A stretch of 64,000 nucleotides of DNA from a virus, in the IMG/VR virus record IMGVR_UViG_3300027151_000002, positions 32,001 to 96,000 of that record. One strand, 5' to 3'. Numbering within the stretch: the first letter of the stretch is position 1; every line of letters starts with the position of its first letter. The notes under the pieces are model-generated. The model did not search any database. It was not told the origin of the DNA and saw only the letters and a list, made by a program, of their open reading frames with translations. Positions 39,097 to 62,891 of the stretch are shown here, one piece after another. The translations under genes were made by a program, and so were the position numbers.

Positions 39097-39520
39097 TGCC
39101 ATCACCTTCAACGTGATCGGCATGGAACCAGCAACCCAAGGCTCTAAAAGCCATGTCGGTAACGGGATCATGCGCGAAACCAATCAGCGCCTCCGTCCCT
39201 GGCGCTCTCTCGTCACCGACGCAGCCCTAGCAACCAATACCCCACTCATCAATCACCCCGTCTCCATCTCAATAACCTTTCGCTTCCTACGCCCCAAAGG
39301 CCACTACAACAAATCCGGCCTATCCCCTAAAGCACCAGCCCACCTAACCTCTCGCCTAAAGGGCGACATCGACAAACTTTCCCGTGCCGTGCTTGATGCC
39401 CTCACTGGCTCACTTCTTCACGACGATTCTCAAGTGGTTCAACTGGCTGCCCACAAGCGCTACTGCACCGCAGAAGAAAAACCTGGTGCCCTCATCACCA
39501 TCATCCCGCTGGCAACCTAA
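38957..39520 (+). CDS. rusA: RusA-like Holliday junction resolvase
   Basis: PATQGSK, F.F.RPK.H, DIDKL.RAVLDALT...DDSQVV...KRY; true start probably downstream (~39040). Confidence 0.8.
   Translation: MSPSAVSSSPSMAPSPQTLPAPSQPNAGGLNENNDASTPSPSSSAPSAITFNVIGMEPATQGSKSHVGNGIMRETNQRLRPWRSLVTDAALATNTPLINHPVSISITFRFLRPKGHYNKSGLSPKAPAHLTSRLKGDIDKLSRAVLDALTGSLLHDDSQVVQLAAHKRYCTAEEKPGALITIIPLAT
39511..39520 (+). promoter_or_regulatory. segment B promoter box GGCAACCTAA
   Basis: 19 nt upstream of ATG 39540. Confidence 0.6.
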
Positions 39521-39539
39521 AGCAGCGGCACCCTGTGCC

Positions 39540-39854
39540 ATGGAACCCTGGTCCATCGTTGCTGAAGATCCCGCAACAGGCGAACCCTTCGGCCTGGTCC
39601 TTCAACACGACGTTGACCCAGAACTCGCTGAACACATCGCACGCAATCTTCTCGCTACCTTCCGCCTCACAGGTGGCTACCTCCCAACCAACGGCCATCG
39701 TTCCCTTAAAGGTCACTACCTCTTCCTCTACTTCGTCGCACCAGAACCCGTCGCACGCTTAGCCACCATCTGGGCACGCTCCTTTCAAGACGCTGAAGAC
39801 AAGCTCAATATCCTCGCCTCAGATGGCACCCTCCTCATGCCCTCCTCCGGTTAA
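39540..39854 (+). CDS. hypothetical protein
   Basis: MEPWSIVAEDPATGEPFGL..., following the promoter box. Confidence 0.55.
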   Translation: MEPWSIVAEDPATGEPFGLVLQHDVDPELAEHIARNLLATFRLTGGYLPTNGHRSLKGHYLFLYFVAPEPVARLATIWARSFQDAEDKLNILASDGTLLMPSSG

Positions 39855-39863
39855 ACTCCGGCC

Positions 39864-41075
39864 ATGGCAAATACAATCTCAGATCTCAAGTTTGACCATA
39901 AGAACGCCCGCAAGCGTACTGATAGTTCCGCACGCCTCATTCAGGAATCCCTGCAGCGCTACGGCGCAGCACGCTCCATCGTCATCGACGAAGAGAACCG
40001 CATCCTTGCGGGCAACGGCACCATCGAAGGTGCCAAGGCACTAGGGCTAACGAAGCTCAAGGTCGTTGAAGCCAGCGGTGACGAGATCATCGCCGTGCGC
40101 CGTAGCGGCCTCTCCGAAGATGAGAAGGTCGGCCTCGCTATCGCTGACAACCGCGCTGCTGAACTCTCGGACTGGGATGCCGAGATGCTGCAACAGCTCA
40201 GCGAAGAGCATGACCTAGAGCCTTGGTTTGAAGCAGAAGACCTAGACGAGCTGCTTAAGGAAGCCGAGCAACTCGATCCAGTCGAAGGCAACACCGACCC
40301 CGATGAGGTGCCTGAGGCACCCGAAGATCCGATCACCAAGCCAGGTGATCTCTGGATTCTCGGCAATCATCGCCTCCTCTGCGGTGACAGCACCAACCCG
40401 CAGCACGTTGAACGCCTGATGGATCAGCAGGAGGCGGACATGCTCTACTGCGATCCTCCTTATGGGATGAACCTCAACACCGACTACAGCCAGATCAAAG
40501 GCTCCGCAAAAAGCCCTAACGCAAAGGGCTACAAATGGAAAGAAGTAATAGGAGATGACAAAGATTTTGATCCATCGGCTCTAATAGCTTTGTTCCAAGA
40601 TGTGCCAGAGCAATTTTGGTGGGGAGCTGATTATTACTTTGAATGCCTGCCTCGCGGTGGCAGCTTGATTGTTTGGCAAAAACGGGACAAGGCTGATGCT
40701 GAGATGATCGGTAACGATTTTGAGATCTGCTGGTCTAAGAAGCGCCATAAGAAAGCAACATTTTGGAAGCGCTGGGTTGGTTTTGACTCTGTAGAACGCG
40801 GAGAGAAGCGCGTCCACCCAACGCAGAAGCCCGTTGACTTGCATTCATGGGTCTTCGATCAATGGGGAAAACAAGGTGACGTTGTAGTAGACCTCTTTGG
40901 AGGCTCAGGCTCCACCCTTATCGCCTGCGAAAAGACCAACCGCCACTGCCGCATAATGGAACTCGACCCCGCCTACTGCGATGTGATCGTCAAGCGCTGG
41001 GAAGACTTCACCGGTAACACCGCCATCTGCCAACCCTCCGCTACCCACTTTGCGGAGCAACAGGAGGCAGCCTGA
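39864..41075 (+). CDS. ParB-like N-terminal domain + N4C/N6A DNA methyltransferase
   Basis: NAR...SL.RYG...AGNG...IADNR; GDLW.LG.HRLLCGDS; DPPYG; HPTQKP; DLFGGSGSTLIACE. Confidence 0.9.
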   Translation: MANTISDLKFDHKNARKRTDSSARLIQESLQRYGAARSIVIDEENRILAGNGTIEGAKALGLTKLKVVEASGDEIIAVRRSGLSEDEKVGLAIADNRAAELSDWDAEMLQQLSEEHDLEPWFEAEDLDELLKEAEQLDPVEGNTDPDEVPEAPEDPITKPGDLWILGNHRLLCGDSTNPQHVERLMDQQEADMLYCDPPYGMNLNTDYSQIKGSAKSPNAKGYKWKEVIGDDKDFDPSALIALFQDVPEQFWWGADYYFECLPRGGSLIVWQKRDKADAEMIGNDFEICWSKKRHKKATFWKRWVGFDSVERGEKRVHPTQKPVDLHSWVFDQWGKQGDVVVDLFGGSGSTLIACEKTNRHCRIMELDPAYCDVIVKRWEDFTGNTAICQPSATHFAEQQEAA

Positions 41076-41398
41076 TGGCAGCCCGCGATTCCTACCAAGG
41101 TCAAGCTATCGAGCGGGCACGCCGCTTCGCTCGCATAATCGCCAATGGCGGCCGTAGGTCGGACTGCCTGCGCTATGCCGAAGAAAACTGGGGGGTCAAG
41201 GCAAGCTCCTGCGATCAATACCTCCGCATGGCCCGCGATCAGCTCAAGGCTGACTGGGACATCGAACGGCCCCAGATGATCGCTGACCTGCTCTCTCAGT
41301 GCTCCACCCTTCAGATGGAAGCCCGCCGCGCTGGGCAGTACCACATCGCTCTAGGTGCCATTAACACCGCAGCCAAGCTCGCTCAGCTCTGCTCGTGA
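41075..41398 (+). CDS. terminase small subunit
   Basis: HTH-like 107-aa ORF coupled directly upstream of TerL. Confidence 0.7.
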   Translation: MAARDSYQGQAIERARRFARIIANGGRRSDCLRYAEENWGVKASSCDQYLRMARDQLKADWDIERPQMIADLLSQCSTLQMEARRAGQYHIALGAINTAAKLAQLCS

Positions 41399-42744
41399 GC
41401 ATCCTTGCTGCTGCACCAACAGGCAACGTCCTTCAGCAGATCGGTCATGGCAACGGCGACCTTGATGTAGCCAACCTCCTCGCTCGCATCACAGCGGACC
41501 TGCACCCCGGTCAGCTCGCCTTTGTCGAAGACCAGACAACCGAGATCCTTGGCATTTCTGCCGGATACGGCGCTGGTAAAACCCGTGCACTAGCCAGCAA
41601 GGCCGTTCACCTCGCCGCCAGCAATCAGGGCTTCATCGGCATCGTCATGGAGCCCACCGGCCCATTGATCCGTGACATCTGGCAGAACGACTTCGACGAC
41701 TTCCTAGAGGCCTACGACATCCCCTACACGTTCCGCGCTTCACCGCTCCCGGAATACGTGCTGCACCTGCCCGGCGGCGACACCAAGATCCTCTGCCGCA
41801 GCTTTGAAAACTGGCAGCGCTGCATCGGCATCAACGCCGCATGGTGCCTCTGCGATGAAATTGATACTGTCCCACCCTCCACGGCCAACAAGGCCTTCCC
41901 CAAGATCCTTGGCCGCCTTCGTGCCGGCAACGTTCGGCAGTTCGGTGCAGCCTCCACACCTGAAGGCTTCCGCTGGATGTGGCAAACCTTCGCCTCAGAA
42001 GAGACCAAGGAACGCGCTGATCGCAAGCTGATCAAGATGCGCACGGCAGACAACCCCTATCTGCCGCCTGACTTCATTGAGCGTCTACAGGCCAACTACG
42101 ACCCGAACCTGCTGCAGGCCTACCTCAACGGTGAGTTTGTCTCGCTCACCACCGGCCAGGTGTACGACCGCTTCAACCGTGAGCTGCACGTTCAGACGGT
42201 TGACTGGGATCCAGAAGAGCCGATCCTGCTCGGCATTGACTTCAATATTGGCAACATGAGTGGCGTCTTAGCCGTGCGCCGTGGCCGTGAGCTGCACGTC
42301 TTTGATGAGATTACCGGTGCCCACGACACCGATGCCCTCGCTCAAGAGGCTCGCCGCCGTTACGGCAAAGCACGCATCCTTGGCTACCCCGATGCTTCCG
42401 GTGCCAACCGCAGCACCAATAGCTCCCGCAGCGACATCGCCATCCTGGAGAGCTACGACATCAGCAACATGGCACCCTCAGCCAACCCACCGGTGCGCGA
42501 CAGGATCGCAGCGGTGCAAGCGTTGCTGGAGAACGGCATGGCCGAGCGCCGTCTGTTCGTCGATAAGCGCTGCAAGAAGCTGATCGAGTGCCTAGAGCTG
42601 CAGAGCTACACAGAGCAAGGTGATCCAGACAAGAGCGCCGGCTATGACCACATGAATGATGCGCTCGGCTACATCGTCCACCGCTGCTTTGAAGTGGGCC
42701 GTGGCCACAGCGGTAAAGCAGTGCGCAATCTGCGCATCTACTGA
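41395..42744 (+). CDS. terL: terminase large subunit
   Basis: Walker A GYGAGKT, Walker B LCDEID, ASTPEG, RNase H-like GIDFN...DH.NDA. Confidence 0.95.
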   Translation: MSILAAAPTGNVLQQIGHGNGDLDVANLLARITADLHPGQLAFVEDQTTEILGISAGYGAGKTRALASKAVHLAASNQGFIGIVMEPTGPLIRDIWQNDFDDFLEAYDIPYTFRASPLPEYVLHLPGGDTKILCRSFENWQRCIGINAAWCLCDEIDTVPPSTANKAFPKILGRLRAGNVRQFGAASTPEGFRWMWQTFASEETKERADRKLIKMRTADNPYLPPDFIERLQANYDPNLLQAYLNGEFVSLTTGQVYDRFNRELHVQTVDWDPEEPILLGIDFNIGNMSGVLAVRRGRELHVFDEITGAHDTDALAQEARRRYGKARILGYPDASGANRSTNSSRSDIAILESYDISNMAPSANPPVRDRIAAVQALLENGMAERRLFVDKRCKKLIECLELQSYTEQGDPDKSAGYDHMNDALGYIVHRCFEVGRGHSGKAVRNLRIY

Positions 42745-42746
42745 TC

Positions 42747-42756
42747 GGAAACCTAG
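42747..42756 (+). promoter_or_regulatory. segment B promoter box GGAAACCTAG
   Basis: Intergenic, 11 nt before the portal GTG. Confidence 0.65.
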
Positions 42757-42767
42757 AAAAAAGGGCT

Positions 42768-44237
42768 GTGCACTTCAATCTCGCTGCCACTGAACTCAAG
42801 CCCGTCCTGTCCATTCAGGATCTCGGCGTTCACGATCCCGGCATCGCCTGGCAGCGGATGCAGCCCCGCTGGGAACTCATCGAAGAGCTGATCGGTGGCA
42901 CGCTGCAGCTGCAAGCCGCAGGCCGTCGCTACCTGCCGCAGGAGCCGAAGGAATCCGACGAGAGCTATCTCGCCCGCCTGCGCCGCAGCGTCTGCCCGCC
43001 GTACTACCAGCGCTTAGAGCAGATGCTGGCCGGCATGATCAGCCGCAAGCCAGTCCGTCTGGACAACGTGCCTGATCAGGTGCAAGAGCACATGATGGAC
43101 GTCGATCTGCAGGGCAACGATCTCAACGTCTACCTGCACAGCCTGGCCCGCACCTGTCTGCGCTACGGGCACGTCGGCGTGCTGGTGGACTTCCCTCGCG
43201 GTGATGAAGGCGACGACACACCGGTTACTGACTTCAACCGTCCCTACTGGGTGAGCTACAGCCCACGGGACATCCTTGGCTGGCGAACTGACGTAGTGGG
43301 CGGCACGCAAAAGCTCACGCAGCTGCGCCTGCTAGAGCGCGTCGTCGTGCCTTACTCGGAATACGGCGAAGAGGTGGTGGAGCAGGTGCGGGTGCTGACG
43401 CCCGGTGCGTTCCAGCTGTTCCGCAAGCAGGCCTCCCGCTCCCGTGATTGGGAACTGGTCAGCGAAGGCCAGACCACGCTCGACGAGATCCCCTTTGCGG
43501 TTGCCTACTCCAACCGCGTGGGCATCCTGGAATCCACCCCGCCGCTGGAAGAGGTCGCACACCTCAACCTGCAGAGCTACCGCGTCAGCTCAGACCTCAG
43601 CAATCAGCTGCACATCGCTGCTGTGCCTCGCTTCCATCTGTACGGCGTGCCAGCCGAACTAGATGAGATCACTGCTGGCCCTGACTCCGCCATGGCTCTA
43701 CCCGTGGATTCACGGGCTGAGTTTGTGGAGCCGCAAGGCACCAGCTACGGCTTCCAGTTCCAGCAGCTGGATCGCATTGAACGCCAGATCAATCAACTTG
43801 GCCTGGCCGCTGTGATGGGTCAAAACATGACCAACCAAGCGGCAGAAGCCAAGGCCATTGACCGCAGCCAAGGTGATGCTGCCCTGATGACCGTGGCGCT
43901 TGGCCTGCAGGATCTGATCGACAACTGCCTGCGCTTCCACAGTGCGTTCCTCGGTCTGCCCAACAGCGGCAGCAGCATGGTCAACAACGACTTCGTGGCC
44001 CGCACGCTGGAGCCTGGTCATGTAGCCGAGCTGATCAAGCTGCGCCTCAACGGTGACATCACGCAGGAAACCCTGCTGATCCAGCTAGCCGATGGTGAGT
44101 GGCTCTACGACGACTTCAATGTCGATCAGGAGATTGAAGCCACCGCAGCGCAACAGCAATCACGGCTTGATGCACAAGCTGCGCAGCTTGATGCAAATCT
44201 GCAACAACTTCCGGGGCAACCTAATCAGCAACCCTGA
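42768..44237 (+). CDS. portal protein (DUF4055-like)
   Basis: YLPQEP.E..Y.ARL, D.QGN.L, YG.VGVLVD, PPL..VA.LN; position after TerL. Confidence 0.85.
   Translation: MHFNLAATELKPVLSIQDLGVHDPGIAWQRMQPRWELIEELIGGTLQLQAAGRRYLPQEPKESDESYLARLRRSVCPPYYQRLEQMLAGMISRKPVRLDNVPDQVQEHMMDVDLQGNDLNVYLHSLARTCLRYGHVGVLVDFPRGDEGDDTPVTDFNRPYWVSYSPRDILGWRTDVVGGTQKLTQLRLLERVVVPYSEYGEEVVEQVRVLTPGAFQLFRKQASRSRDWELVSEGQTTLDEIPFAVAYSNRVGILESTPPLEEVAHLNLQSYRVSSDLSNQLHIAAVPRFHLYGVPAELDEITAGPDSAMALPVDSRAEFVEPQGTSYGFQFQQLDRIERQINQLGLAAVMGQNMTNQAAEAKAIDRSQGDAALMTVALGLQDLIDNCLRFHSAFLGLPNSGSSMVNNDFVARTLEPGHVAELIKLRLNGDITQETLLIQLADGEWLYDDFNVDQEIEATAAQQQSRLDAQAAQLDANLQQLPGQPNQQP
44215..44224 (+). promoter_or_regulatory. segment B promoter box GGCAACCTAA
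   Basis: 27 nt upstream of the scaffold ATG. Confidence 0.6.
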
Positions 44238-44251
44238 GCCTGTGGCTCTAC

Positions 44252-44935
44252 ATGCCCGACAACGACACCGCTCCTGTGGAGCAGTCTGCAAACAACGCTG
44301 ATCTGCAAGCCCTGCAAGCAGAACTCGATGCCATGCGCCGCAAGAATGCGGAGCTGCTGGACGAGAAGAAGAAGCTGGCCAAGAAGCTGCCTGAAGTGCC
44401 CGATGGCGTTGATGTCCAGGAACTGCTGGACTTCAAGCGCAAGGTGGAGCAGCAGCAGCTGGAATCCAAAGGCAAGTACGACGAAGCGCTTAAGACCTAC
44501 GAGCAGCAGTACCGCGAGCGTGAATCGCAGCTGCAGGCTCGTGTCGCTGAGCTAGAGGCCGAAAACCGTGAACTCAAGGTGATCGGTCCTGCCGTCGCTG
44601 CCCTGGCCGACACCGTGCACGATCCAGATGAGGTGATCAGGTTGCGGCTCAAGCCCGATCAGATTGAGCGCGAAGCAGACGGCAGCGTGGTCGTTGTCGA
44701 TGGCTACCAGCGCACACCAATCAGCGACTGGGCACGCACCAGCCTGCCGCAGTACCGCCTCAAGGCACCAAAGCCCGCCGGCACCGGCGCACCGGTTGGC
44801 CGTAGCACCGCTGAACTACCTGCCGGCAGCAAAAACCCCTTCTCGCGTGAGCACTACAACCTCACCGAACAAGCACGGATCTACAAAACAGATCCTGAAC
44901 TCTATGCACGCTTAAAAGCTGCAGCTAGTAAGTAA
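44252..44935 (+). CDS. capsid scaffolding protein
   Basis: Coiled coil, G.GAP linker and KNPF...NLTEQ...DPE C-terminus; directly upstream of MCP. Confidence 0.8.
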   Translation: MPDNDTAPVEQSANNADLQALQAELDAMRRKNAELLDEKKKLAKKLPEVPDGVDVQELLDFKRKVEQQQLESKGKYDEALKTYEQQYRERESQLQARVAELEAENRELKVIGPAVAALADTVHDPDEVIRLRLKPDQIEREADGSVVVVDGYQRTPISDWARTSLPQYRLKAPKPAGTGAPVGRSTAELPAGSKNPFSREHYNLTEQARIYKTDPELYARLKAAASK

Positions 44936-47402: not shown

Positions 47403-47412
47403 GGCAACCTAG
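47403..47412 (+). promoter_or_regulatory. segment B promoter box GGCAACCTAG
   Basis: Intergenic, 18 nt before ATG 47431. Confidence 0.65.
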
Positions 47413-47993: not shown

Positions 47994-48572
47994 ATGCGCG
48001 TTGCTGAAGGCCAGCTTGATTTCTTCAGCACTCCGGCCGCTGCACCGGAGAAAAAGCGCAGCGAAGGACACCTTGCTAAACCACTGACCCGCGAGGAACA
48101 GCGGCGGTTTGGGCGCATGTATGCCGAAAACATCGGCCTGATCAAGATGTTCGGCGGGAAGCTGTGCCGCAAGTACAGCCACTGCATGGCCAAGGAGGAT
48201 ATCTTCTCCTGCTGTGACATTGCCTTCTTGAAGGCGTGCCGTGCTTGGGATCCCGAGAAGGGAAAGCTGAGCACGATCTTCTGGAGCTTTGCCCAAGGTG
48301 AAGTGCTGCACTTTTTGCGGGGCCACAACTGGACGATCAAGGCCACGCACAAGGTCAGGCTGCTGGGCAACAACGCCAGGCGGCTGATGGCGTTGGGCTG
48401 GCAGCCGGCAGCGATCTGCAAGGAGCTGAGCTGCAGCAAGCAAGACCTCAAGGAAGCACTGCTAGCGACAGCAGGCGTGGCCCATGACGTGAAGGGCTTT
48501 GACCTACATGTATGCCCGCGCATGACGCCGTGGGAGGTACTTGAGGCCGAAGAGGAGGCTGCTGCTAGTTAG
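47994..48572 (+). CDS. phage sigma factor (sigma70 regions 2-3, SigF/FliA-like, no region 4)
   Basis: ENIGLI...EDI...AFLKA...WDPEKGKLST...GEVLHFLR...IK; region-3-like AICKELSCS..DL. Confidence 0.8.
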   Translation: MRVAEGQLDFFSTPAAAPEKKRSEGHLAKPLTREEQRRFGRMYAENIGLIKMFGGKLCRKYSHCMAKEDIFSCCDIAFLKACRAWDPEKGKLSTIFWSFAQGEVLHFLRGHNWTIKATHKVRLLGNNARRLMALGWQPAAICKELSCSKQDLKEALLATAGVAHDVKGFDLHVCPRMTPWEVLEAEEEAAAS

Positions 48573-48573: not shown

Positions 48574-48583
48574 GGCAACCTAA
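48574..48583 (+). promoter_or_regulatory. segment B promoter box GGCAACCTAA
   Basis: Intergenic, 23 nt before the tail tube ATG. Confidence 0.65.
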
Positions 48584-48606: not shown

Positions 48607-49086
48607 ATGGCCACCGGTGCCTTTTTTAACTCGCTGGGGTATCGGTTCTATGTGAAGGCCGGCACCACCGCCAGCACCAAGCCAACCGCTAGCACCGGCA
48701 TGACTGAGGTGCTGTCCCTGACCAACGCTGGTATCCAGGGCACCAGCCAGACGCAGGAAGTGCAGGACTACGGCAGCACGCTGGGCTTTACCGCTTCGCT
48801 GGTGACCACGCAGGCTTACACCATCCCCTGCGAGATGAACCTCAACCTGAATGACGCCGGTTATGCCGTCCTCAAAAATGCTGCCCTAAATGCTGCAACC
48901 GGCACCACTGTTGAGTGGTATCGTGAATCGCCCGAGATGAGTGGCACCGGCAGCCCTGAATACCACTCCGGCGTCGCCTTCGTGACCGACTTCTCGGAGT
49001 CGATTGCTGCAGGCAATGTTGCAACTGTCAGTTTTACCTTGTCGGGCTACGGCTCGTATTCCTGGTCTGCCGAGACCAACGCCTGA
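48607..49086 (+). CDS. tail tube (major tail) protein
   Basis: 159 aa; G.AFVTDFSES..AGNVATVSFTL.GYG. Confidence 0.75.
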   Translation: MATGAFFNSLGYRFYVKAGTTASTKPTASTGMTEVLSLTNAGIQGTSQTQEVQDYGSTLGFTASLVTTQAYTIPCEMNLNLNDAGYAVLKNAALNAATGTTVEWYRESPEMSGTGSPEYHSGVAFVTDFSESIAAGNVATVSFTLSGYGSYSWSAETNA

Positions 49087-49114
49087 GCAACTTAGGTTGT
49101 CGGGTGGACAGCAG

Positions 49115-49143
49115 AGCGGCCAGCTGGAGATGGCCGCTTTTTT
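49115..49143 (+). terminator. intrinsic terminator between convergent genes
   Basis: AGCGGCCA-N8-TGGCCGCT followed by a T tract. Confidence 0.75.
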
Positions 49144-49995: not shown

Positions 49996-50005
49996 CTAGG
50001 TTCCC
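49996..50005 (-). promoter_or_regulatory. segment B promoter box GGGAACCTAG (minus strand)
   Basis: 3 nt before the minus-strand ATG at 49992. Confidence 0.65.
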
Positions 50006-50014: not shown

Positions 50015-50024
50015 GGCAACTTAA
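50015..50024 (+). promoter_or_regulatory. segment B promoter box GGCAACTTAA
   Basis: 19 nt before the TMP GTG; back-to-back with the 49996 box. Confidence 0.65.
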
Positions 50025-50043: not shown

Positions 50044-52269
50044 GTGGCGGAGAGTCTGGGCTCAGCTGTCTTAACAGTCAGCGTTGATGATGCCCAGCTC
50101 AAAGCAGGCCTGCAAGCTGCAGAACGTCAAGCAACAGCGACTGGCCGCGCAGTAGAAAAAGCCTTCACACCGTCCGGCAAGTCGGTGCAGACTGCTGCCA
50201 ACGGTCTGCAGTATTTCATTGATACGCAGGGTCGTGCCCGTGATACGGCTGGTAAGTTTCTGACCGTTGCACAGCAGCAGGCGGCTGGGATTGAAAACGT
50301 CGGCAAAAGTGCAAAGCGGGCAAGCTTTGACATCAGCGGCCTAGGTGATGCGTTAGCTGCGATTGGTATTGGTGCTGCCGCTGCTGGGTTTCTGCGTGGC
50401 TCCGTTAATGCTGCTGTAGAACTTGAAAGTATTAGCAAGAAACTCAGCAATACGCTCGGTGAGCAAGGTGCTGGGCAGGCACTCAGTTTTACCAAGGGCT
50501 TGGCTGATCAGCTGGGCCTCAGCTTCAAAACGCTGGCCGGTAGTTTTGGCAGCTTTACAGCCGCAGCCTCGGCGGCCAATGTTCCGCTTGACCAGCAGAA
50601 AGAGCTGTTCGCTGCTGTCGCTAAGGCGGCGCAGGCTCTTGGTCTGAGCAACGATGAAATCAATGGCTCACTGCTGGCCCTGCAGCAGGTTGCAGCCAAA
50701 GGCACCGTGCAGATGGAAGAACTGCGCGGTCAGCTTGGTGAGCGCTTGCCGATTGCTTTTGGTGCTACTGCCAAAGGGCTTGGCATCACACAGCAAGAGC
50801 TAATTAAGCTCGTGGAGTCTGGAAGGCTCACAGCATCTGAGTTTTTCCCTGCTCTGACCAAAGGCCTTAATGAGCTGACAGCAGGTGCTGGTGGTTCGGC
50901 AACTGCAGCTCAGAACTTCCAAAAGCTGGCTAATGCTTTTGACGAGCTGCAGACATCCTTTGGAAAGACTTTGCTGCCAACCATTACCGAGCAGGTCAAG
51001 AACCTGACCGGTGCGTTGAGTGGGTTGCAGATTGGAATTGATGCCAACAAGCTTGGCCTTGGTGGCCTCTTTGGCAACCTTGGCCTAGTTCCAGATGCAG
51101 GCATTGAGGCCGTTGCATCGGTGCGGCAACTTGCTGAGCAGTATCAGCTGACCGCTGAGCAGGCACGGGCTCTGTTCTTTGATGCGGCCAAGCTTGAAGG
51201 TCTAACACTTACCAGCACAGGCTTTCTCCCCGACGCTAAAGGTTTGGAGCGAGCGCTAGAGCGCTTGCCGCAACTAGCCGAAGAATTCAGGGCCAAAAAT
51301 AAGGATGCAGTCACAGAGCTGAAAGCACAAGCGGCAGAGGCTGCTCGTGTTGCTGCAGAGCAGAAAAAAGGACGTGACAGCGTTGAAAACATTCAAGAAG
51401 CCATTAAGGCTTTGTCTTCAGAGCAGAAGGCATTGGCGGTTGATAGTCAGCGCTATGCAGACATCTCGCAAGAGATCGTCAACAAGCAAACGCGACTCAA
51501 TGAGCTGAAGAAGACCGAGGGCCAGCGTTTTGCCGAAAGTATTGCTGCTGCAAATCAGCTTCGTAGTATTCAAGAGGAGATCGCCATCCAACAGCAGCGC
51601 GGCAGCTTGACTGGTACTGGCATTGGCGCGTTACAAGCTGTCAAAGCGCTGGAGGATGCCAAACGAGCTGAGCAAGAAGCCCAGGCTGCTCTTGGTGCTG
51701 ATCCTGGTAACTCCAGCCTCTTCAACGCCTCGCAGCAGGCAGCAGCCAATGTTCAGCTGGCTGCAGCTAAGACCAAGGCCGACCTTGAAGACGCTTTTAG
51801 GTCCGCACAAGATGCGGTGCGCAGCATCAGCCGCAGCATTGAGGATTCCGTCACTGCCCTGAACGCCGCACGCGGTAGCGCTGAGGGCATCAATAAGTTC
51901 ATCAATCCCCAGCAAGCCCGTGAGCGGCAACAGGCTGCCAACGTGACCTTGCTGCGTGAAGCAAGCGATCTGGCTAAGCAGCTTGGCGTCACTGCCACCT
52001 TCCGGGGTGGGCTGACGCAGCGCAACAGCCAGCTCAACGAGTTCATCACAGCTGCACGGCAAGAGCTGCGTGCTCCTGAGGACATTGCACGCTCCAACTT
52101 GGATTTAGCGCGTGCTCAGAACGATCTCGCCACCGTCAACGAGTCCCTAGTCAATGTGACTACTCAGCTGGCGGAAGCGACCGCAAACCTAGCGAGTAAG
52201 GACTGGAACGTTTACGTGAACGCTCCGGCCACTGCTGATCTGCCCCGTGGCGTGGAGGTTTACCAATGA
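50044..52269 (+). CDS. tail tape measure protein (741 aa)
   Basis: MAESLGSAVL.V.VD; ALQQVAAKGTVQMEELRGQLGERLP; Ala/Gln-rich coiled coil. Confidence 0.9.
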   Translation: MAESLGSAVLTVSVDDAQLKAGLQAAERQATATGRAVEKAFTPSGKSVQTAANGLQYFIDTQGRARDTAGKFLTVAQQQAAGIENVGKSAKRASFDISGLGDALAAIGIGAAAAGFLRGSVNAAVELESISKKLSNTLGEQGAGQALSFTKGLADQLGLSFKTLAGSFGSFTAAASAANVPLDQQKELFAAVAKAAQALGLSNDEINGSLLALQQVAAKGTVQMEELRGQLGERLPIAFGATAKGLGITQQELIKLVESGRLTASEFFPALTKGLNELTAGAGGSATAAQNFQKLANAFDELQTSFGKTLLPTITEQVKNLTGALSGLQIGIDANKLGLGGLFGNLGLVPDAGIEAVASVRQLAEQYQLTAEQARALFFDAAKLEGLTLTSTGFLPDAKGLERALERLPQLAEEFRAKNKDAVTELKAQAAEAARVAAEQKKGRDSVENIQEAIKALSSEQKALAVDSQRYADISQEIVNKQTRLNELKKTEGQRFAESIAAANQLRSIQEEIAIQQQRGSLTGTGIGALQAVKALEDAKRAEQEAQAALGADPGNSSLFNASQQAAANVQLAAAKTKADLEDAFRSAQDAVRSISRSIEDSVTALNAARGSAEGINKFINPQQARERQQAANVTLLREASDLAKQLGVTATFRGGLTQRNSQLNEFITAARQELRAPEDIARSNLDLARAQNDLATVNESLVNVTTQLAEATANLASKDWNVYVNAPATADLPRGVEVYQ

Positions 52270-56324: not shown

Positions 56325-56326
56325 TC

Positions 56327-56336
56327 GGCAACCTAG
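56327..56336 (+). promoter_or_regulatory. segment B promoter box GGCAACCTAG
   Basis: Intergenic; flank CTGATCGG.AACCTAG matches 42741-42756. Confidence 0.65.
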
Positions 56337-56777: not shown

Positions 56778-57181
56778 TGGCACTCACCCTCTCGATTAGC
56801 CAATACGAGCTGCAGCGCCAAGCCGCCTTGGCGTTTGAGGGCAAGGCGTATGAGGTGTTTCTGGCCACCAACAGCGGCAGCCTCACCAGCAACTCCACCT
56901 ACACCGCATGGCAGGCGGTGGAAGTCGCTAGCGCAAACGGCTACGCCCCAGTGACCGGCACCATCGGCACCGGATCGTGGAGCGCGGGCAATGCTCGCTA
57001 TGAACTGCCGTCTATCACCGCCACCTTCACCAGTAGCGGCAGCGGCTTCAGCTACGACACGATCTGCGTGCGTATCGGCACGGAGACCTACCTGCACAGC
57101 ACCATTGCTGAATCGCCCAGCATCACTCTGGCCGCCGGGCAGTCCAAGTCCTACGTGATCACTTTGGTGCAGGACGACTGA
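56777..57181 (+). CDS. virion structural protein (paralogue-like of 56355)
   Basis: EV...NGY, FTSSG, SITLAAGQS vs SITLAAGES in 56355. Confidence 0.6.
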   Translation: MALTLSISQYELQRQAALAFEGKAYEVFLATNSGSLTSNSTYTAWQAVEVASANGYAPVTGTIGTGSWSAGNARYELPSITATFTSSGSGFSYDTICVRIGTETYLHSTIAESPSITLAAGQSKSYVITLVQDD

Positions 57182-57184
57182 TCC

Positions 57185-58717
57185 ATGAGCACCTACATCA
57201 CGGTCGCCAGCGGCACCGGCGCTCTGGTGAACCGCGTGAAGCAGGTGCAGCAAGCCAACCGCGAGGCGCAACTGCAGCGTGAGAGCGACGCTGCGCTGCA
57301 GGCGCAAGTCACTGAGGATGCGAAAGCGCAAGCCGCGCAGACCGAGCGCCCGGTCGGCGGCAACCCAGATACCAGCATTGAACGCCGCCCTGCTGCGCAG
57401 CGGGAGCTGGGCAGCGTCATGGGCGTGGAGTACACCACGACGGTGATTCCCAACGTCCCGCAACCCACGTTCCGTTTGACTGTCGGGCCACCAGGACAGC
57501 AGCAGACGGCACAGGCCGAAACGCTTGGCCCCAGCGGGGCAGCAGCCACCAATCAGCCCGCAGCGACTGACACCAGTAGCGGACAAGATTCGGTGCTTGG
57601 GTTCTTGATTCTGCACGACCCTCCCAACTTCTTTGGCAACGACTGGACTACGGAATACCCCTGCGGGTATTTCTTCCAGACGGGGAAAGGTGCAGCGCCT
57701 ACAAGCTCTTGGGCAGAATCTAGAATCTCTAGAGTTGTCACACAGGACTACGACGACTCGGCGTACTACCTGCTGCCGATTGGAGAAGAGACGTGCATCT
57801 TTGTCTACGTCTACAGCAAGCTCAGAACCCTAACGGTCTACGAGCGCCGGGACCGCACAGATCGCGTCTCCGTTAATCCACGCTTTACTGAGTTTGGCTG
57901 CGGCTTTCAGACAGGCACTTACTACGACCGAGAAAGCACGTTCCGCAGCGAGGACATCTTTAGCAACATTGAGGAACGCCAAGCGTATGCGGTGATGGCC
58001 TTTGTCGTCAGCCCTAAAGCGGTGCGGGTGTTGGAGGTGCCCCCTGAATTGGATGCACTGATGCGGCAGTTGCACCCGCCCATGGCGGTCAACGACACCG
58101 TAGAGGTGCTCGGCTCTTCCCAGTACACCCGTTATGAGTTTGCGGATGTGCGAGGCCAAGTGGATCCGCAGAACTACAACGGACCGGTGACCTACGGCAC
58201 AATCACAGTGCCGTACTTCAATGCAACGAAGCACCGCGAAGGCTCACTGCACGGCAACTATGCCAGCGGCAACGACGTACTGGCTAAGCAGTTTGGCCTG
58301 GGTTATCTCAACACCGACACCCACGACGGTGACTTCTTCACCCCAGCGGTGTATCGCTTCATCCGGGCTGCGATGAACCTGAGCAGCGCCAGCACCCAGA
58401 GTTACGCCTATATGCGCAGCACCTTTTTTGGCATTGCCCCCAAGAAGTACCTAGCCCCCTGCGCTGTTGCTGGAAGCTGCCCAGTTGACGGCAACGACGA
58501 GCCCACCACGGTGGTGTTTGACATTACCAAGACAGAGCCTGTGAATATCAGCACAGAGGTGTCTGCTGGTAGTTTCCAGCGCGGCCGCAAGTATCAGGTG
58601 CCGCTCAACGGTGCCGATCAGTATGACGTGGTGTACGGCTGGGATTGGGATAACGCCAACTACTGCCGCCAGCAGCTGACCGCCTTGGGTTTCGCCCCTG
58701 CTGACCTCAAACCATGA
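57185..58717 (+). CDS. candidate receptor-binding/tail protein
   Basis: N-terminal coiled coil then aromatic-rich globular domain; C-terminal W.W.NA.YCRQQL.ALGF..ADL.P. Confidence 0.5.
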   Translation: MSTYITVASGTGALVNRVKQVQQANREAQLQRESDAALQAQVTEDAKAQAAQTERPVGGNPDTSIERRPAAQRELGSVMGVEYTTTVIPNVPQPTFRLTVGPPGQQQTAQAETLGPSGAAATNQPAATDTSSGQDSVLGFLILHDPPNFFGNDWTTEYPCGYFFQTGKGAAPTSSWAESRISRVVTQDYDDSAYYLLPIGEETCIFVYVYSKLRTLTVYERRDRTDRVSVNPRFTEFGCGFQTGTYYDRESTFRSEDIFSNIEERQAYAVMAFVVSPKAVRVLEVPPELDALMRQLHPPMAVNDTVEVLGSSQYTRYEFADVRGQVDPQNYNGPVTYGTITVPYFNATKHREGSLHGNYASGNDVLAKQFGLGYLNTDTHDGDFFTPAVYRFIRAAMNLSSASTQSYAYMRSTFFGIAPKKYLAPCAVAGSCPVDGNDEPTTVVFDITKTEPVNISTEVSAGSFQRGRKYQVPLNGADQYDVVYGWDWDNANYCRQQLTALGFAPADLKP

Positions 58718-58839
58718 ACCAACCCACCAGCAATCCGTTGCTTGCACGGATCAAACAAGTGCAAGCCGCTATTCGCCAAGTGCAGCTGCGCAAGGAGAAA
58801 GAGCAACGCCTCATCAATAGGGCATTAGCCTCTAAGTAA
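58714..58839 (+). CDS. 41-aa coiled-coil peptide (not in the ORF track)
   Basis: MNQPTSNPLLARIKQVQAAIRQVQLRKEKEQRLINRALASK; ATGA coupling. Confidence 0.6.
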   Translation: MNQPTSNPLLARIKQVQAAIRQVQLRKEKEQRLINRALASK

Positions 58840-58852
58840 TCACCAAAAGCCT

Positions 58853-59437
58853 ATGCCCACGCTGCCCTTTGTTCAAGCACCCGAGACACCAACCTTGCGG
58901 CGTCTTGGCACACCCGCCAGCGGGATCCTTGAGATGCCGGTGCTGGGCGGTCTGACGGTGGGTGAATCGGCCGTGGTGAGTGAACTGCTGGCAGCAGAGC
59001 AGAGCGCCTTCGTCAAAGGTGCGCAGATCGCAGATGCGATTGCCAAGGCAGAAGAGATCAGCATCTCCGAGGCGTTCAGCATTATTGAAAGCGCCATCAG
59101 CGGTAAGGCGCTGGAGCCCGAGGCTGAAGCGATCCGCACCCGCCACGCCGAGCAGATTGAGCAGGTGGCACGGGTGTATGCCAGCGCTGGGCAGCGCAAC
59201 ATGGAGGCCACCGTCACAGCCCTTATTCGTTGCCGCTGCAACCTCAGCGACTGGCGCGTAGACGACACCCGCCAGATGCACCGCGCCCTGTTCAACGCGA
59301 TCTGGGCCTTGGCGCAAGAGGAGCAGGAAGCTGAGGCGATGCCGAATGAACCGCCGACGGAGGAGGAATTGGGAAAGCCGCAGCCGGCGGATGGCGCCGG
59401 AGCGAAACGGACTGGGCGCAAATCTTCTACGACCTAG
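58853..59437 (+). CDS. tail assembly chaperone (gpG analogue)
   Basis: Resembles 199-732 (A..IA...I...EAF, W...DT); ends with an in-frame G GGA AAG. Confidence 0.75.
   Translation: MPTLPFVQAPETPTLRRLGTPASGILEMPVLGGLTVGESAVVSELLAAEQSAFVKGAQIADAIAKAEEISISEAFSIIESAISGKALEPEAEAIRTRHAEQIEQVARVYASAGQRNMEATVTALIRCRCNLSDWRVDDTRQMHRALFNAIWALAQEEQEAEAMPNEPPTEEELGKPQPADGAGAKRTGRKSSTT
59371..59377 (+). promoter_or_regulatory. -1 programmed frameshift heptamer G GGA AAG
   Basis: TTG GGA AAG in frame; same heptamer as the lambda G/T site; -1 frame open to 60024. Confidence 0.85.
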
Positions 59438-60024
59438 CCCACGGCTATCCGGGTCAGTTCCATCGCACCAGCTACCAGCGTGAGCTGCGCGTCGTGGTGC
59501 TGCGGGCGTGGCGTGAATTGCAGCGCATCCGCCGCGAGCAGGTGCAGCTGCAGGAGCTGCCTGTCGCTCAGCTGGCGGCGCTGCTGGCCAACGTCAACCG
59601 CGACCCCAAGAAGGGCAAGCCCTTCAGCCTGCAGGACTTCACGCTGTTTGCGGAAGAGCGCAAAGACGAAAGCGTGCTGAGCCCGGAGGTCGCGGCTGTG
59701 GCGCTAGAGCTACGCCATGAGGACAAAGCACCGCCGCTGCTGATCACCTGCTGGCCGCAGGTGCTCGCCAGCGTCAAAGACGGCGCCAAGGTGCCGAGCC
59801 CCCGTGCGCTACACAGCGACGACAATGCGGTGTGGGTGCTGGCGCCTAAGTGGGAGAGCGCCAACGTGCGCGGCGGATTGGTGCTCGTTCGTGGGCGGAT
59901 CAGCGGCAGCATCACCGTGCGCGATCTCGACAAGCCACTGTTGAGCTACACCTTCAAGCTGCCTGAGCGCCCCGGTTTCGGCTGGATGGAGGCAGGCTGT
60001 CTCTTGGTTGCAACGGAAATCTAG
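59377..60024 (+). CDS. tail assembly chaperone frameshift extension (gpT part)
   Basis: -1 frame AAAGGWRRSETDWAQIFYDL... joins ORF 59494-60024. Confidence 0.75.
   Translation, partial: AAAGGWRRSETDWAQIFYDLAHGYPGQFHRTSYQRELRVVVLRAWRELQRIRREQVQLQELPVAQLAALLANVNRDPKKGKPFSLQDFTLFAEERKDESVLSPEVAAVALELRHEDKAPPLLITCWPQVLASVKDGAKVPSPRALHSDDNAVWVLAPKWESANVRGGLVLVRGRISGSITVRDLDKPLLSYTFKLPERPGFGWMEAGCLLVATEI
60015..60024 (+). promoter_or_regulatory. segment B promoter box variant GGAAATCTAG
   Basis: 4 nt before ATG 60029. Confidence 0.5.
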
Positions 60025-60028
60025 GCCC

Positions 60029-60430
60029 ATGGCAACCGTGCTCTCGTTTAGGACCGCGCTCCAGGTCACGCTGGCGTCCTACTTGGGCACCTACACCCTT
60101 GCCAACGGCAGCACCACGCCAGCCATCTCGGTGCGTGGGGCGGGTGAGAGCCTGCCGCCCAACACCACCGTCAGCGGCCTTGAGGTGGTGATCCTGCGGG
60201 AGCCGGAGCTGGTACCGGTGCGCCAGTACCAGAAAGAGCACGCCTTCAGCCGCTGGACGATTTACCTCGTCGATTGGGACGGCACCAACAGCCTGCAGGA
60301 AGTAGCTGGCAAGTTGCTCTGGGCGTACCCCGGCAGCAACGCCGTCTCGATCAACGTGCCAAGAGGCGTAGGCCCGCGTTCGCAGATGCGCGTTGACATC
60401 CAGACCGATCCCGACCTGATTGTGGGTTGA
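60029..60430 (+). CDS. tail terminator-like protein
   Basis: 133 aa; LGTY...TPA, GLEVVI, W.IYL..W; ATG 60029 preferred over TTG 60008. Confidence 0.45.
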   Translation: MATVLSFRTALQVTLASYLGTYTLANGSTTPAISVRGAGESLPPNTTVSGLEVVILREPELVPVRQYQKEHAFSRWTIYLVDWDGTNSLQEVAGKLLWAYPGSNAVSINVPRGVGPRSQMRVDIQTDPDLIVG

Positions 60431-60440
60431 GGAAACCTTG
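60431..60440 (+). promoter_or_regulatory. segment B promoter box variant GGAAACCTTG
   Basis: Immediately after the stop; 21 nt before ATG 60462. Confidence 0.5.
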
Positions 60441-60461
60441 GTGTAGAGCTTTTTGTTGGCG

Positions 60462-61154
60462 ATGCCCGTATTTCCAGGCGCTGGTGACGCCTCTGTTCGG
60501 CTGGCGTACAAAGACGCCGGGGGTATCGTTCAGAATGTTGATACCAACAATCCTCTGCCGGTCAACATTGGCAGCGCCACGCTCAGCGTCACTGCAGACG
60601 GCGTTGAGATCAAAAACGACACGGGCAACCCCGTACCCGTCAGTGATGGCGCAAGCAGCCTGACTGTCGATGGCAAGGCATACCGCTCAACGGTATCCAT
60701 TACCCGCCCCAGCAACACCACCGCTTACACCGCTGGTGATGTGGTTGGTGACACTGGCGGCAGCGCGATCCTGACGCTCACCAACGCCGGCCCCAGCGGT
60801 GGCTTCGTCATTGTGCAAAGCGCCTCGCTGATTTTTAGCGACAGCAGTGTTCCGAGCGGCATGGGCGCCTTCCGCGTTCATTTGTACTCAGCCAGCCCCA
60901 CCGCCATCGCGGATAACGTTGCCTTTGACTTAGCGAGCGGCGAGCGGGCCACCTACATGGGCTACATCGAACTGCCCACACCGCAGGATCTCGGCAGCAC
61001 GATCTACACACAGGTGGACTACCCAGGCCGCCTGCTTAAGCTCGCCGCAGCCAGCACCTCGATCTTTGCCGAGATCGAAACCCGTGGCGCTTACACCCCC
61101 GTTAGCGCCAGCACCGTTGAACTCCGCATCAACACACTGGAGGCTGGACTCTGA
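60462..61154 (+). CDS. virion structural protein
   Basis: NPLPV, VEIKNDTGNPVPV, RPSNTTAYTAGDV. Confidence 0.55.
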   Translation: MPVFPGAGDASVRLAYKDAGGIVQNVDTNNPLPVNIGSATLSVTADGVEIKNDTGNPVPVSDGASSLTVDGKAYRSTVSITRPSNTTAYTAGDVVGDTGGSAILTLTNAGPSGGFVIVQSASLIFSDSSVPSGMGAFRVHLYSASPTAIADNVAFDLASGERATYMGYIELPTPQDLGSTIYTQVDYPGRLLKLAAASTSIFAEIETRGAYTPVSASTVELRINTLEAGL

Positions 61155-62506
61155 TGCGCGGCTCTGCTGCTTTCCGCACCAGCGTTACCCCTGGTGGCGC
61201 ACTAGCTGGACCGTGGGTGCGTAACCCACTGTGGAACGCTGCCCGCAGTGTGCCGTCGCTGGACCTGCGCTTTGCCGACAACAAGAGCCTCGTTGACGCC
61301 ACCACCGGCCAGAACCTTGTCACCTTCACCCGCGCCAGTAGCGGCACCTATGTCGGCAGCGATAGGCTGATCAAGACGGCGACGACGAACGAAGCACGCT
61401 TTGATCATTCTCCCACCACGGGCGAAAGCCTAGGGCTGCTGGTGGAGGAAAGTAGGACGAATTTGTGTTTGCAAAGTGAGGCATGGGATACGTCTCCTTG
61501 GACATCCACTGCTCCGTACAGCGTAACCGCTAATGCAATAGCTGCACCAGATGGCACACAAACAGCCGATGCTTTGATTGTTGCTAGCGGGTCAAGTTCA
61601 TTCACTACTAATGTAACAAGGCAAATTATTACGAAAGCAGCATCTGCACTTCAATACACCCGAAGCGCATATTTCAAAGCACTAGGCTCAACGACTAGCG
61701 TTCGAGTCAGCGATTTTGGTTCCTCTGCAGCAAACGGTGCCTCCGCAGTCGTATCACTTGTTGACGGCAGTATTGTCACCGCTCCGTCTGTAGCGGGTTC
61801 CTTTTCTGGTGCTTCGGTTGCGGTGTCAAATGCCGGGAATGGCTGGTGGCGCGTTGCGTTTACTTATACCACTGATACGGCAACTTCATTAACTATCCGA
61901 TCTTTCCCGTATGTAGGCGCGGGCGTGCTTACGGGCGACGGGTCCAGCGGTCTTTACGTCTGGGGCGTTCAACTAGAAGCCGGCGCCTTCCCCACCAGCT
62001 ACATCCCCACCACCACAGCAACAGTCACCCGCAGTGCTGACGTGGCCAGTATTACGGGGAGTAACTTCAGCTCTTGGTATCGACAGGATGAGGGGACGGT
62101 GTTTGGAGATTTTACAAGAACTGCAAGCACGAATACGCAACAAGGGCGTGTTTTTAGTTTTAGCGATGGGACAAACACGAACCTGCTTGAGATTTATCAA
62201 ACAGGTGGGTCCAATCCAGCCGCTCAAATTATTGCAACTACATCACAAGCTGGGTGGATAGCATCTAACTTTACTGTTGGAACGTCAACTCGTGAAGTGC
62301 TTGGCTATCAGCTAAACAATACCAATGCTTCATTCAACGGCAGCTCTGAAACAGCGGATACAGTTTGCACTATGCCAAATGCATTAACGCAAGCACGAAT
62401 TGGAGATCGTCAAGATGGTGTCAGAACACTTAACGGCACCATCCGCCGCCTCACCTACTTCCCAACCCGCCTTCCCAACGAGACTCTCCAGGGGATCACG
62501 CAATGA
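61154..62506 (+). CDS. tail fibre/spike-like protein (lectin/CBM-like)
   Basis: PSLDL.F, TFTRASSGT, ARFDH...GLLVEE.RTN, GNGWWR, QLEAGAFPTSYIPTT. Confidence 0.7.
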   Translation: MRGSAAFRTSVTPGGALAGPWVRNPLWNAARSVPSLDLRFADNKSLVDATTGQNLVTFTRASSGTYVGSDRLIKTATTNEARFDHSPTTGESLGLLVEESRTNLCLQSEAWDTSPWTSTAPYSVTANAIAAPDGTQTADALIVASGSSSFTTNVTRQIITKAASALQYTRSAYFKALGSTTSVRVSDFGSSAANGASAVVSLVDGSIVTAPSVAGSFSGASVAVSNAGNGWWRVAFTYTTDTATSLTIRSFPYVGAGVLTGDGSSGLYVWGVQLEAGAFPTSYIPTTTATVTRSADVASITGSNFSSWYRQDEGTVFGDFTRTASTNTQQGRVFSFSDGTNTNLLEIYQTGGSNPAAQIIATTSQAGWIASNFTVGTSTREVLGYQLNNTNASFNGSSETADTVCTMPNALTQARIGDRQDGVRTLNGTIRRLTYFPTRLPNETLQGITQ

Positions 62507-62784
62507 CTTATTTTATCCGCTTCCCGAACGCTGAAACCGGCATGAATGCCTTGGATGATGCTGGTTTGCTTGATGATGACCAGCAATTCATCACTGCTTC
62601 CCACAACCATTCCCTTGATGTGATTGGCACCATTTTCAGTGGTGGTGAATGGGCTTTGGATGATAGCGTCATTACACCCCCTACTGTACTTGACGGCTGG
62701 CACGTCAACTTTCAAGGCGAGCTTCCTGAGGGGTGGGAGGAGTACGTGGTTGAGCCGCAGCAGCCGGTGAGGGTGTTTGCTTAG
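62503..62784 (+). CDS. tail-fibre-associated small acidic protein
   Basis: LDVIGTI...DGWHVN...P..P.RVFA; coupled to the fibre gene. Confidence 0.55.
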   Translation: MTYFIRFPNAETGMNALDDAGLLDDDQQFITASHNHSLDVIGTIFSGGEWALDDSVITPPTVLDGWHVNFQGELPEGWEEYVVEPQQPVRVFA

Positions 62785-62837
62785 TGGCGGTCACTAACGT
62801 GGTGGTGTTCCCGCTCTGCTTCGGCATCGGGCTGCTT

Positions 62838-62859
62838 AGCCCAGCTTCGGCTGGGCTTT
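62838..62859 (+). terminator. intrinsic terminator with a UUCG loop
   Basis: AGCCCAGC-TTCG-GCTGGGCT followed by a short T run. Confidence 0.65.
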
Positions 62860-62881
62860 GCTGTATCCATTACTTCAGAGG

Positions 62882-62891
62882 GGCAACTTAG
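62882..62891 (+). promoter_or_regulatory. segment B promoter box GGCAACTTAG
   Basis: 20 nt before the holin-like ATG at 62912. Confidence 0.65.

Follow-up and report, generated by a model that had tools for sequence, protein, structure and literature searches.

A repeated GGCAAYYT box before the late genes of a temperate cyanosiphovirus and the small SigF-like sigma factor that may read it

What reads the short box that recurs before the late genes of an uncultured cyanophage, and does the phage's own sigma factor without region 4 do so? The window, a stretch of 64,000 nucleotides of a viral record, had been described in a first-pass annotation as holding a late-transcription system of its own, in which this sigma factor drives a -10-only promoter; enrichment of the box and its co-occurrence with the sigma factor in related phages were named there as checks. 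The record proved to be two phages joined, with phage B running from window position 38638 onward; neither the joining nor a second sigma factor outside the window was visible to that reader. Phage B is an uncultured temperate cyanosiphovirus and kin of KBS-S-2A, judged temperate by the serine integrase it encodes, and its genome is 91% coding.

The box before its late genes has the consensus GGCAACCTAR and the core GGCAAYYT, laid out as GG, a hexamer nAAYYT and then AR, and these 10 bp are the only conserved part. The window holds the following boxes, and one further match to the pattern, in phage B.

39511..39520, plus strand, box GGCAACCTAA: first box, where the late region begins; shares bases with the RusA stop codon (gene 38957-39520), 20 nt before ATG 39541; orthologous site kept in the B-group and the P0021 group
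42747..42756, plus strand, box GGAAACCTAG: 11 nt before the portal gene start, GTG 42768
44215..44224, plus strand, box GGCAACCTAA: inside the portal gene, at its 3' end; the scaffold gene ATG 44252 follows after 27 nt
47403..47412, plus strand, box GGCAACCTAG: 18 nt before ATG 47431 of the head-tail adaptor gene Ad1
48574..48583, plus strand, box GGCAACCTAA: 23 nt before the major tail protein gene ATG 48607
49996..50005, minus strand, box GGGAACCTAG: 3 nt before ATG 49992 of a 131-aa minus-strand gene
50015..50024, plus strand, box GGCAACTTAA: 19 nt before the tape-measure gene GTG 50044
51073..51082, plus strand, pattern match GGCAACCTTG: inside the tape-measure gene
56327..56336, plus strand, box GGCAACCTAG: 18 nt before ATG 56355 of a 140-aa tail-region gene
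60015..60024, plus strand, box GGAAATCTAG: its TAG is the upstream gene's stop codon; 4 nt before ATG 60029
60431..60440, plus strand, box GGAAACCTTG: 12 nt before TTG 60453; N3-ATG spacing in the relatives' orthologues
62882..62891, plus strand, box GGCAACTTAG: 20 nt before ATG 62912 of a small gene heading the endolysin cassette

Across the window, GGVAAYYTWR matched 16 times, compared to 6.1 +/- 2.7 in shuffled sequences, and none of 100 shuffles reached 16. The 36.1 kb covered for phage B contained 13 strict matches, where first-order Markov simulations gave 1.9 +/- 1.3 and at most 7, and 12 of the 13 lay 0-27 nt upstream of a co-oriented start. This enrichment is what the first-pass annotation had proposed to check, and its observations on the box also held up: all eleven 10-mers that it listed were recovered in place and on the right strand, and they end 3, 4, 11, 12, 18, 18, 19, 20, 20, 23 and 27 nt before their starts, in agreement with its range of 3-27 nt. 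It had not included the match at 51073, which is probably non-functional or due to chance, or one on the minus strand at record position 97107, beyond the window. Its remark that the intergenic gaps of segment A hold no box agrees with the four matches in phage A (10141, 10810, 10871, 34554), every one of which falls within an ORF, and its failure to see a shared -35 element was borne out by 123 non-redundant sites, in which no position upstream of the box was informative. No boxes were found before early genes in phage B or in the complete relative G001. The box is over-represented ahead of genes and points the same way as they do, and relatives retain it although the sequence around it diverges. 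It is confirmed as real and late-specific, and its most likely role is that of a -10-only late promoter, as predicted.

Two hairpins in the late region bear on the need for such a promoter.

49113..49140, plus strand: strong hairpin plus T-run, past the major tail gene at a convergent junction
62834..62856, plus strand: terminator-like hairpin with a T-rich tail, directly upstream of the lysis-cassette box at 62882

Everything downstream of the terminator at 49113-49140 needs a new promoter, and a divergent pair of boxes follows it: the minus-strand box at 49996..50005 and the plus-strand box at 50015..50024 stand back to back, 9 bp apart, in a 51-bp divergent gap, as had been described for the point where gene direction flips. 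An equivalent hairpin lies ahead of the lysis-cassette box in relatives, and the late region is poor in sigma-70-like promoters (2 observed vs 4.5 expected). Spacing to the start codon had two peaks: among the non-redundant sites, 13 stood at exactly 3 nt and 43 at 18-23 nt. At the minus-strand box the N3-ATG spacing was kept in 11 relatives while the N3 and the box itself varied. Terminator-then-box order, the back-to-back pair and the fixed 3-nt distance to ATG point to a promoter that would act at the DNA level. The 3-4 nt class further implies putative leaderless mRNAs, which the first-pass annotation, correct on the distances, had missed; such mRNAs are not known to be widespread among marine picocyanobacteria.

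Phage B encodes two sigma factors that could read the box.

47994..48572, plus strand: small sigma, 192 aa, with sigma-2 and sigma-3, without region 4, with a conserved acidic C-terminal helix
record 97283-98197, just outside the window: large sigma, full-length and RpoD-like, 304 aa

The small sigma matched PHROG 351 (1.4e-12), and a profile of its family searched against the PDB found SigF (1l0o, 4e-13), followed by SigB and FliA. With Pfam Sigma70_r2, the phage B protein scored 18 bits, below the cut-off, and the small sigmas of the P0021 group 37-45 bits, above it. The AlphaFold2 model (pLDDT 85) had sigma-28, SigB and sigma-S as top Foldseek matches. Both the sigma-2 domain (regions 2.1-2.4) and the sigma-3 domain (regions 3.0-3.1) were identified: the alignment to SigF extends to position 159 of the 189-position profile, helices span 119-133, 138-144 and 149-159 in the model, and mean pLDDT is 87-97 in the four ten-residue blocks of residues 121-160. 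A sigma-4 domain (regions 4.1-4.2) was not found, as the protein ends ~30 residues past sigma-3, nor did any of 18 homologues (127-311 aa; E < 1e-30, 1.8 billion proteins searched) contain region 4. Profiles, AlphaFold2 and Foldseek thus agree with the earlier description of a sigma factor with regions 2 and 3 only, and the label SigF-like fits its closest matches, SigF, SigB and FliA. Regions 4.1-4.2 contact both the -35 element, which they read, and the beta-flap; no beta-flap anchor is known for a sigma factor that lacks them. Provision of region 4 in trans by a 91-aa ORF after the lysis genes was considered and set aside: the ORF has a weak Sigma70_r4 match in the relative G004 only, and Pfam gave none in phage B. 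The family alignment was too diverse to serve as a locus query; loci of the distant homologues P0017, P0029, P0009 and P0012 were not found in viral contigs, nor that of P0025 in metagenome contigs, nor prophage copies in species-representative genomes.

The large sigma accounts for the sole Sigma70_r4 match in the record. It keeps the WWIRQxITR residues of primary sigmas, and these primary-type -10-reading residues would predict TAnnnT promoters. Its gene closes the early operon, where a late-gene activator is classically found. With this second, full-length sigma, which the first-pass annotation could not see, phage B has more than one candidate for reading the box.

Comparison with relatives favours the small sigma as the probable reader. 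Every lineage with a small sigma has the GGCAAYYT core before late genes, and complete relatives carry 8-15 boxes, compared to 1-4 for the reversed control, with a strong strand bias. In the P0021 group, a different phage group whose small sigma is ~37% identical to that of phage B (tblastn), unbiased 7-mer enrichment returned GGCAACT and GGGCAAC (p ~1e-10), and 10-17 cores lay on the late strand vs 1-3 on the other. KBS-S-2A and MED4-like relatives have a large sigma only (35% identical to that of phage B over regions 1.2-3 in the KBS-S-2A-like phages), and no box was found before any of their genes, where TAnnnT hexamers appear in its stead. Box and small sigma thus occur together in several lineages and are both absent from a sister clade, which upholds the co-occurrence part of the original proposal. 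On a capsid-protein tree the genomes lacking both form a single clade, so that their absence counts as one evolutionary contrast, confounded by the lower GC and different hosts of that clade. The large sigma is present in nearly all box-bearing genomes; G005, a linear record with box and small sigma, lacks it and alone separates the two sigmas.

On balance, we lean towards a scheme in which a -35-independent promoter recurs before the late genes and is read by the SigF-like small sigma on host core RNA polymerase. Many late genes of phage B would be fronted by copies of this extended -10-type promoter, and host polymerase carrying the 192-aa phage protein would start transcription 3-7 nt downstream of the box, giving most genes short leaders of ~15-20 nt and leaderless mRNAs where an ATG sits exactly 3-4 nt past the box. 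The small sigma gene lies in the first terminator-free late block, downstream of Ad1 and in the same unit as the box at 47403..47412. As a late gene behind a box, it cannot start late transcription alone and needs priming; it may drive the late genes, as had been proposed, but not as their sole starter. Read-through from the early rightward operon, which ends in RusA, could prime its expression, after which the small sigma would amplify itself and then switch on the units past the terminators (tape measure, tail and lysis). We infer promoter function, start-site position, the reading sigma and the priming route alike from sequence.

The box could instead be a late promoter read by the large sigma or by a SigF-type sigma of the host, with the small sigma employed elsewhere. 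The near-constant presence of the large sigma in box-bearing genomes and its location at the early-operon end would suit this, and a host SigF-type factor could read GGnAA; cyanobacterial SigF reads GGTAA at -12. However, KBS-S-2A-like phages have the large sigma and no box, G005 has boxes and no large sigma, its residues would predict TAnnnT promoters, and the box has no -35 element although the large sigma has region 4; a host sigma, for its part, leaves loss of the box where the small sigma is absent without explanation. We regard another sigma as an unlikely reader. A smaller chance goes to the box acting in RNA, as a translation enhancer, a start-associated sequence or a processing site in a long late transcript. 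It does lie just upstream of start codons on the sense strand, and its 3-4 nt class holds the Shine-Dalgarno position, but the bimodal spacing (3 nt; 11-27 nt) is unlike a ribosome-binding element and rules out a ribosome-binding or 16S-pairing signal. The box lacks anti-Shine-Dalgarno complementarity; its sole partial complementarity to 16S rRNA, seen by eye, is to what we take to be a structured part of helix 44/45 and not to the anti-Shine-Dalgarno tail. No box precedes the capsid gene, which uses an ordinary GGAG. Boxes stand right after terminators and in the 51-bp divergent gap, places that a transcript from upstream should not reach, and an Rfam search gave no match to a known RNA family.

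Repressor binding seems very improbable. The boxes would then be asymmetric phage-repressor sites like the stoperators of mycobacteriophage L5, silencing prophage late genes by blocking elongation. Phage B is temperate, and its sites, like L5 stoperators and the start-associated sequences of cluster K mycobacteriophages, are short, asymmetric, numerous, placed at gene boundaries and oriented with transcription. L5 stoperators are genome-wide repressor sites, and cluster K elements stand at a fixed distance and contain the Shine-Dalgarno sequence; the phage B box differs in being late-only, bimodal in spacing and linked to a sigma factor. A spread of sites over early and late regions as in L5, with the early lytic promoter among them, was not seen in phage B and G001, where the early/lysogeny region, in which the main operators would be expected, has no sites, and the box shows neither the single fixed distance nor the anti-Shine-Dalgarno complementarity of a cluster K element. 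A strict N3-ATG spacing would make no sense for a roadblock, and the box co-varies with a sigma factor and not with an identified repressor. A methyltransferase, pac or cos site was ruled out by the 13 strand-specific copies, nearly all before co-oriented starts, and a Q-type or ops-type antitermination site because those use one site per operon.

A -35-independent late promoter read by the small sigma would resemble the system of T4, where gp55 and its TATAAATA late promoters likewise combine a small phage sigma without region 4 and a repeated -10-only box before many late genes, with no -35 element. T4 gp55 consists of a sigma-2-like part alone and depends on gp33 and the gp45 sliding clamp, whereas phage B, a temperate siphovirus unlike T4, has a SigF-like protein of sigma-2 and sigma-3 and a G-rich box (GGCAAYYT) in place of an A/T-rich one. 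The analogy with gp55 drawn in the first-pass annotation fits the sigma and the box; neither a gp33 nor a gp45 homologue was found among the phage B proteins scanned with Pfam or PHROGs. The pair of box and sigma is most likely a variant of a known phage late strategy. More tentatively, and with slightly less than even confidence, we propose that a sigma of domains 2 and 3 plus host core polymerase may suffice for a late regulon that needs no -35 element and is run from a 10-bp GG-nAAYYT box, partly leaderless (start exactly at ATG), in a widespread uncultured temperate cyanosiphovirus lineage. Alongside T4 gp55, such a protein would be the second late sigma without sigma-4, of independent origin. 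Cyanosiphoviruses are little studied, and a sequence-defined sigma/promoter pair would let late regulons be called in metagenomic cyanophage genomes and, if true, would explain the two sigmas in these phages. So compact a -10-only module would also offer a way to study how a region-4-less sigma holds core polymerase, and the conserved 3-nt box-to-ATG spacing, if confirmed, would be evidence for programmed leaderless late mRNAs in cyanophage.

The pairing of a group-2 with a small group-3 sigma in cyanosiphoviruses is already known from phage P-SS2 (ORF113 and ORF003, respectively), whose authors proposed a specific regulon for the small sigma and reported no cognate promoter (PMC2784084). In both P-SS2 and phage B, a full-length group-2-type sigma adjoins dCTP deaminase and a ~200-aa group-3-type sigma lies among packaging/structural genes. 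P-SS2 is uninformative as an independent test: its first 50 kb showed TTGACA and TAnnnT-type motifs and no GGCAAC box, and its small sigma is only distantly related to that of phage B, with 34% identity over 42% of the query.

Contacts of the kind proposed here have a counterpart in the extended -10 of E. coli sigma-70, where regions 2.4 and 3.0 act at and just upstream of the -10 hexamer, and where the -35 element and region 4 are dispensable. The GG of the phage B box abuts its hexamer nAAYYT, whereas the E. coli element has TGn. The SigF of Synechocystis is full length and needs a -32 TAGGC element plus an AG-rich stretch (PMC2532724), whereas the phage B box has no upstream partner. Synechocystis SigF and the small sigma share one type of sigma-2 and sigma-3 sequence, and the -12 element of the pilA1 promoter, GGTAA(GTT), agrees with the phage B box at GGnAAnTT (PMC2532724).

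The record is 106,734 bp long (the window being its bases 32001-96000), and its positions 1-140 are repeated with 99% identity at 70498-70637 (window 38498-38637), where GC content steps from ~0.48 to ~0.59, indicating that the record fuses a circular phage A (~70.5 kb) to 36.1 kb from another phage, B. Phage B starts at about window 38638 and is unrelated to phage A; its portal protein is 53-56% identical to the portals of the cyanosiphoviruses KBS-S-2A, S-H1 and MED4-184. Complete relatives of B measure 41-43 kb and have terminal repeats, so ~5 kb of B is absent from the record, and the CheckV label '100% complete' is misleading as regards B. Since it encodes a serine integrase, B is probably temperate. 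Its main features are:

Phage B gene order, part 1: RusA, ParB-methylase, terminase, portal, scaffold, capsid, MuF-like protein
Phage B gene order, part 2, after the MuF-like protein: Ad1 adaptor, small sigma, major tail protein, tape measure, tail genes, endolysin
Window 47994-48572, plus strand: small sigma, 192 aa
Outside the window, opposite strand: early operon with serine integrase, ERF, dCTP deaminase and a full-length sigma
L037:8414-9841 (locus L037), outside the window: serine integrase, 475 aa
Record 97283-98197 (L037:3283-4197), minus strand: full-length, RpoD-like large sigma, 304 aa

The first-pass annotation had described a 10-base box, GG(C/A/G)AAYYTWR, just before late genes and oriented with them, and every box it listed was found in place. 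The strict pattern GGVAAYYTWR matches 13 times in B compared to 1.9 +/- 1.3 expected, and although B is 91% coding, 12 of the 13 matches precede a start codon of the same orientation by 0-27 nt. All four matches in phage A fall within ORFs. Across 123 non-redundant sites from relatives, information is confined to the ten box positions, strongest at G1, G2, A4, A5 and T8, and no position upstream of the box is conserved, supporting the earlier view that a -35 element is lacking. Box-to-start spacing is bimodal: a majority of sites fall at 18-23 nt, whereas others form a sharp class at exactly 3 nt. The 3-nt spacing before a 131-aa gene is kept in 11 orthologues, in which the spacer bases and the box sequence vary.

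Relatives were collected both via the small sigma and via the capsid protein. In small-sigma relatives (64-99% identity to the B protein) the box is retained between orthologous genes although its flanks have diverged, and complete relatives carry 8-15 boxes compared to 1-4 for a reversed control. Among capsid-protein relatives, the box occurs in every lineage with the small sigma and both are absent from the sister KBS-S-2A/MED4 clade, the co-occurrence that the first-pass annotation had proposed to look for. All eight GGCAAYYT cores in KBS-S-2A are intragenic, and none is closer than 163 nt to the next start. Genes of this clade (KBS-S-2A, NC_020854.1, locus L036; loci L071, L089 and L111) are enriched upstream for TAnnnT hexamers (TAGGCT, TAGAAT, TAAACT, TAGACT) of ordinary -10 style, presumably read by a host sigma or the phage group-2 sigma. 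In the capsid tree, the clade lacking the small sigma branches from among four lineages that have it, so the absence is best interpreted as a single joint loss of box and sigma, which makes one contrast, confounded with GC content and host. In a second phage group (P0021), the small sigma is ~37% identical and its gene has terminase on one side and portal on the other. Here an unbiased search for 7-mers found GGCAACT and GGGCAAC enriched in upstream regions (p ~1e-10), and the late strand of complete genomes carries 10-17 cores compared to 1-3 on the other. We are nearly certain that the box is a genuine cis element, conserved and specific to late genes.

The small sigma is one of a small family of ~190 aa proteins known solely from environmental sequences. 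The family profile matches SigF (4e-13), SigB and FliA across regions 2 and 3, and region 4 is absent from every member. Both the domain content and the SigF likeness given in the first-pass annotation were upheld. An AlphaFold2 model (pLDDT 85) retrieved only sigma factors as related structures. Where region 4 would begin (residues ~170-192, window 48500-48572) there is a conserved C-terminal TPxExLE motif with an acidic helix, which may serve as a minimal point of contact with core polymerase.

The late region of B is depleted of sigma-70-type promoters. Its first late block ends in a strong hairpin and T-run (49113-49140); the genes that come next point away from each other across a 51-bp gap, in which nothing is conserved except two back-to-back boxes. 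Likewise, the box at 62882 comes immediately after a terminator (62834-62856). We consider the box likely to be a promoter and lean slightly towards the region-4-less small sigma as its reader. Extended -10 promoters, recognized via regions 2.4 and 3.0 alone, are a known precedent for the recognition proposed here. A leaderless mRNA requires a fixed distance from box to ATG, and leaderless transcripts in the 3-nt class would put the box between about -13 and -4. The box would then be parsed as GG directly followed by the hexamer nAAYYT; in this inferred alignment, the invariant A and T of the hexamer would take the places of A-11 and T-7 in TATAAT. Transcripts reading through from the RusA operon would prime small sigma expression. 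In Synechocystis, the -12 element of SigF, GGTAA(GTT), agrees with the box at GGnAAnTT (PMC2532724). The box and the small sigma are a new take on the phage late-sigma theme.

The box could instead be read by host SigF or by the phage large sigma, which the first-pass annotation missed because the gene lies outside the window. The large sigma has regions 1.2, 2, 3 and 4, most resembles primary and RpoS-type sigmas and retains their -10-reading segment WWIRQxITR; its gene adjoins dCTP deaminase where the early operon ends. It is present in all these box-bearing genomes except the relative G005, in which the small sigma occurs with eight boxes but no Sigma70_r2 match at all was obtained, hence no large sigma; this one linear record is the sole case separating the two phage sigmas. 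A start-associated signal acting at the RNA level would account for the position of the box but not for the bimodal spacing, the placement of boxes after terminators, or the ordinary GGAG of the box-less capsid gene. Likewise, a stoperator-type repressor array fits the asymmetry and orientation of the boxes but not their restriction to late genes, and we favor a promoter over both of these readings.

Several other elements lie near boxes. Small hairpins with a CTGTG-type loop stand between box and start of several head genes (window 39521-39543, 42757-42775, 44225-44254; GAGC-CTGTG-GCTC before the scaffold gene) and may be a translational operator or 5' stabilizer. At the major tail gene stop codon, just before the 49113-49140 terminator, the near-palindrome AGCAACTTAGGTTGTC (window 49086-49101) consists of two degenerate box-like halves face to face. 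A conserved 167-nt stretch separates the large sigma stop from a minus-strand box, GGGAACCTAG (record 97107-97282; L037:3107-3282), and its length is unchanged across at least four genomes (B and its relatives G001, G003 and G004). Some relatives have an ATG directly after this box at record 97107, which may lie inside a small conserved ORF reading through it.

The pairing of one large and one small phage sigma was previously described in P-SS2, where a group-2 sigma adjoins dcd and a small group-3 sigma, with no promoter assigned to it, lies among packaging genes (PMC2784084). P-SS2 also has three consecutive 'transcriptional regulator' genes, gp012-gp014 (locus L142:9428-10791), with identical 60-nt upstream sequences that each contain agaTTGACAtaagg; these are a tandem triplication that includes the promoter.
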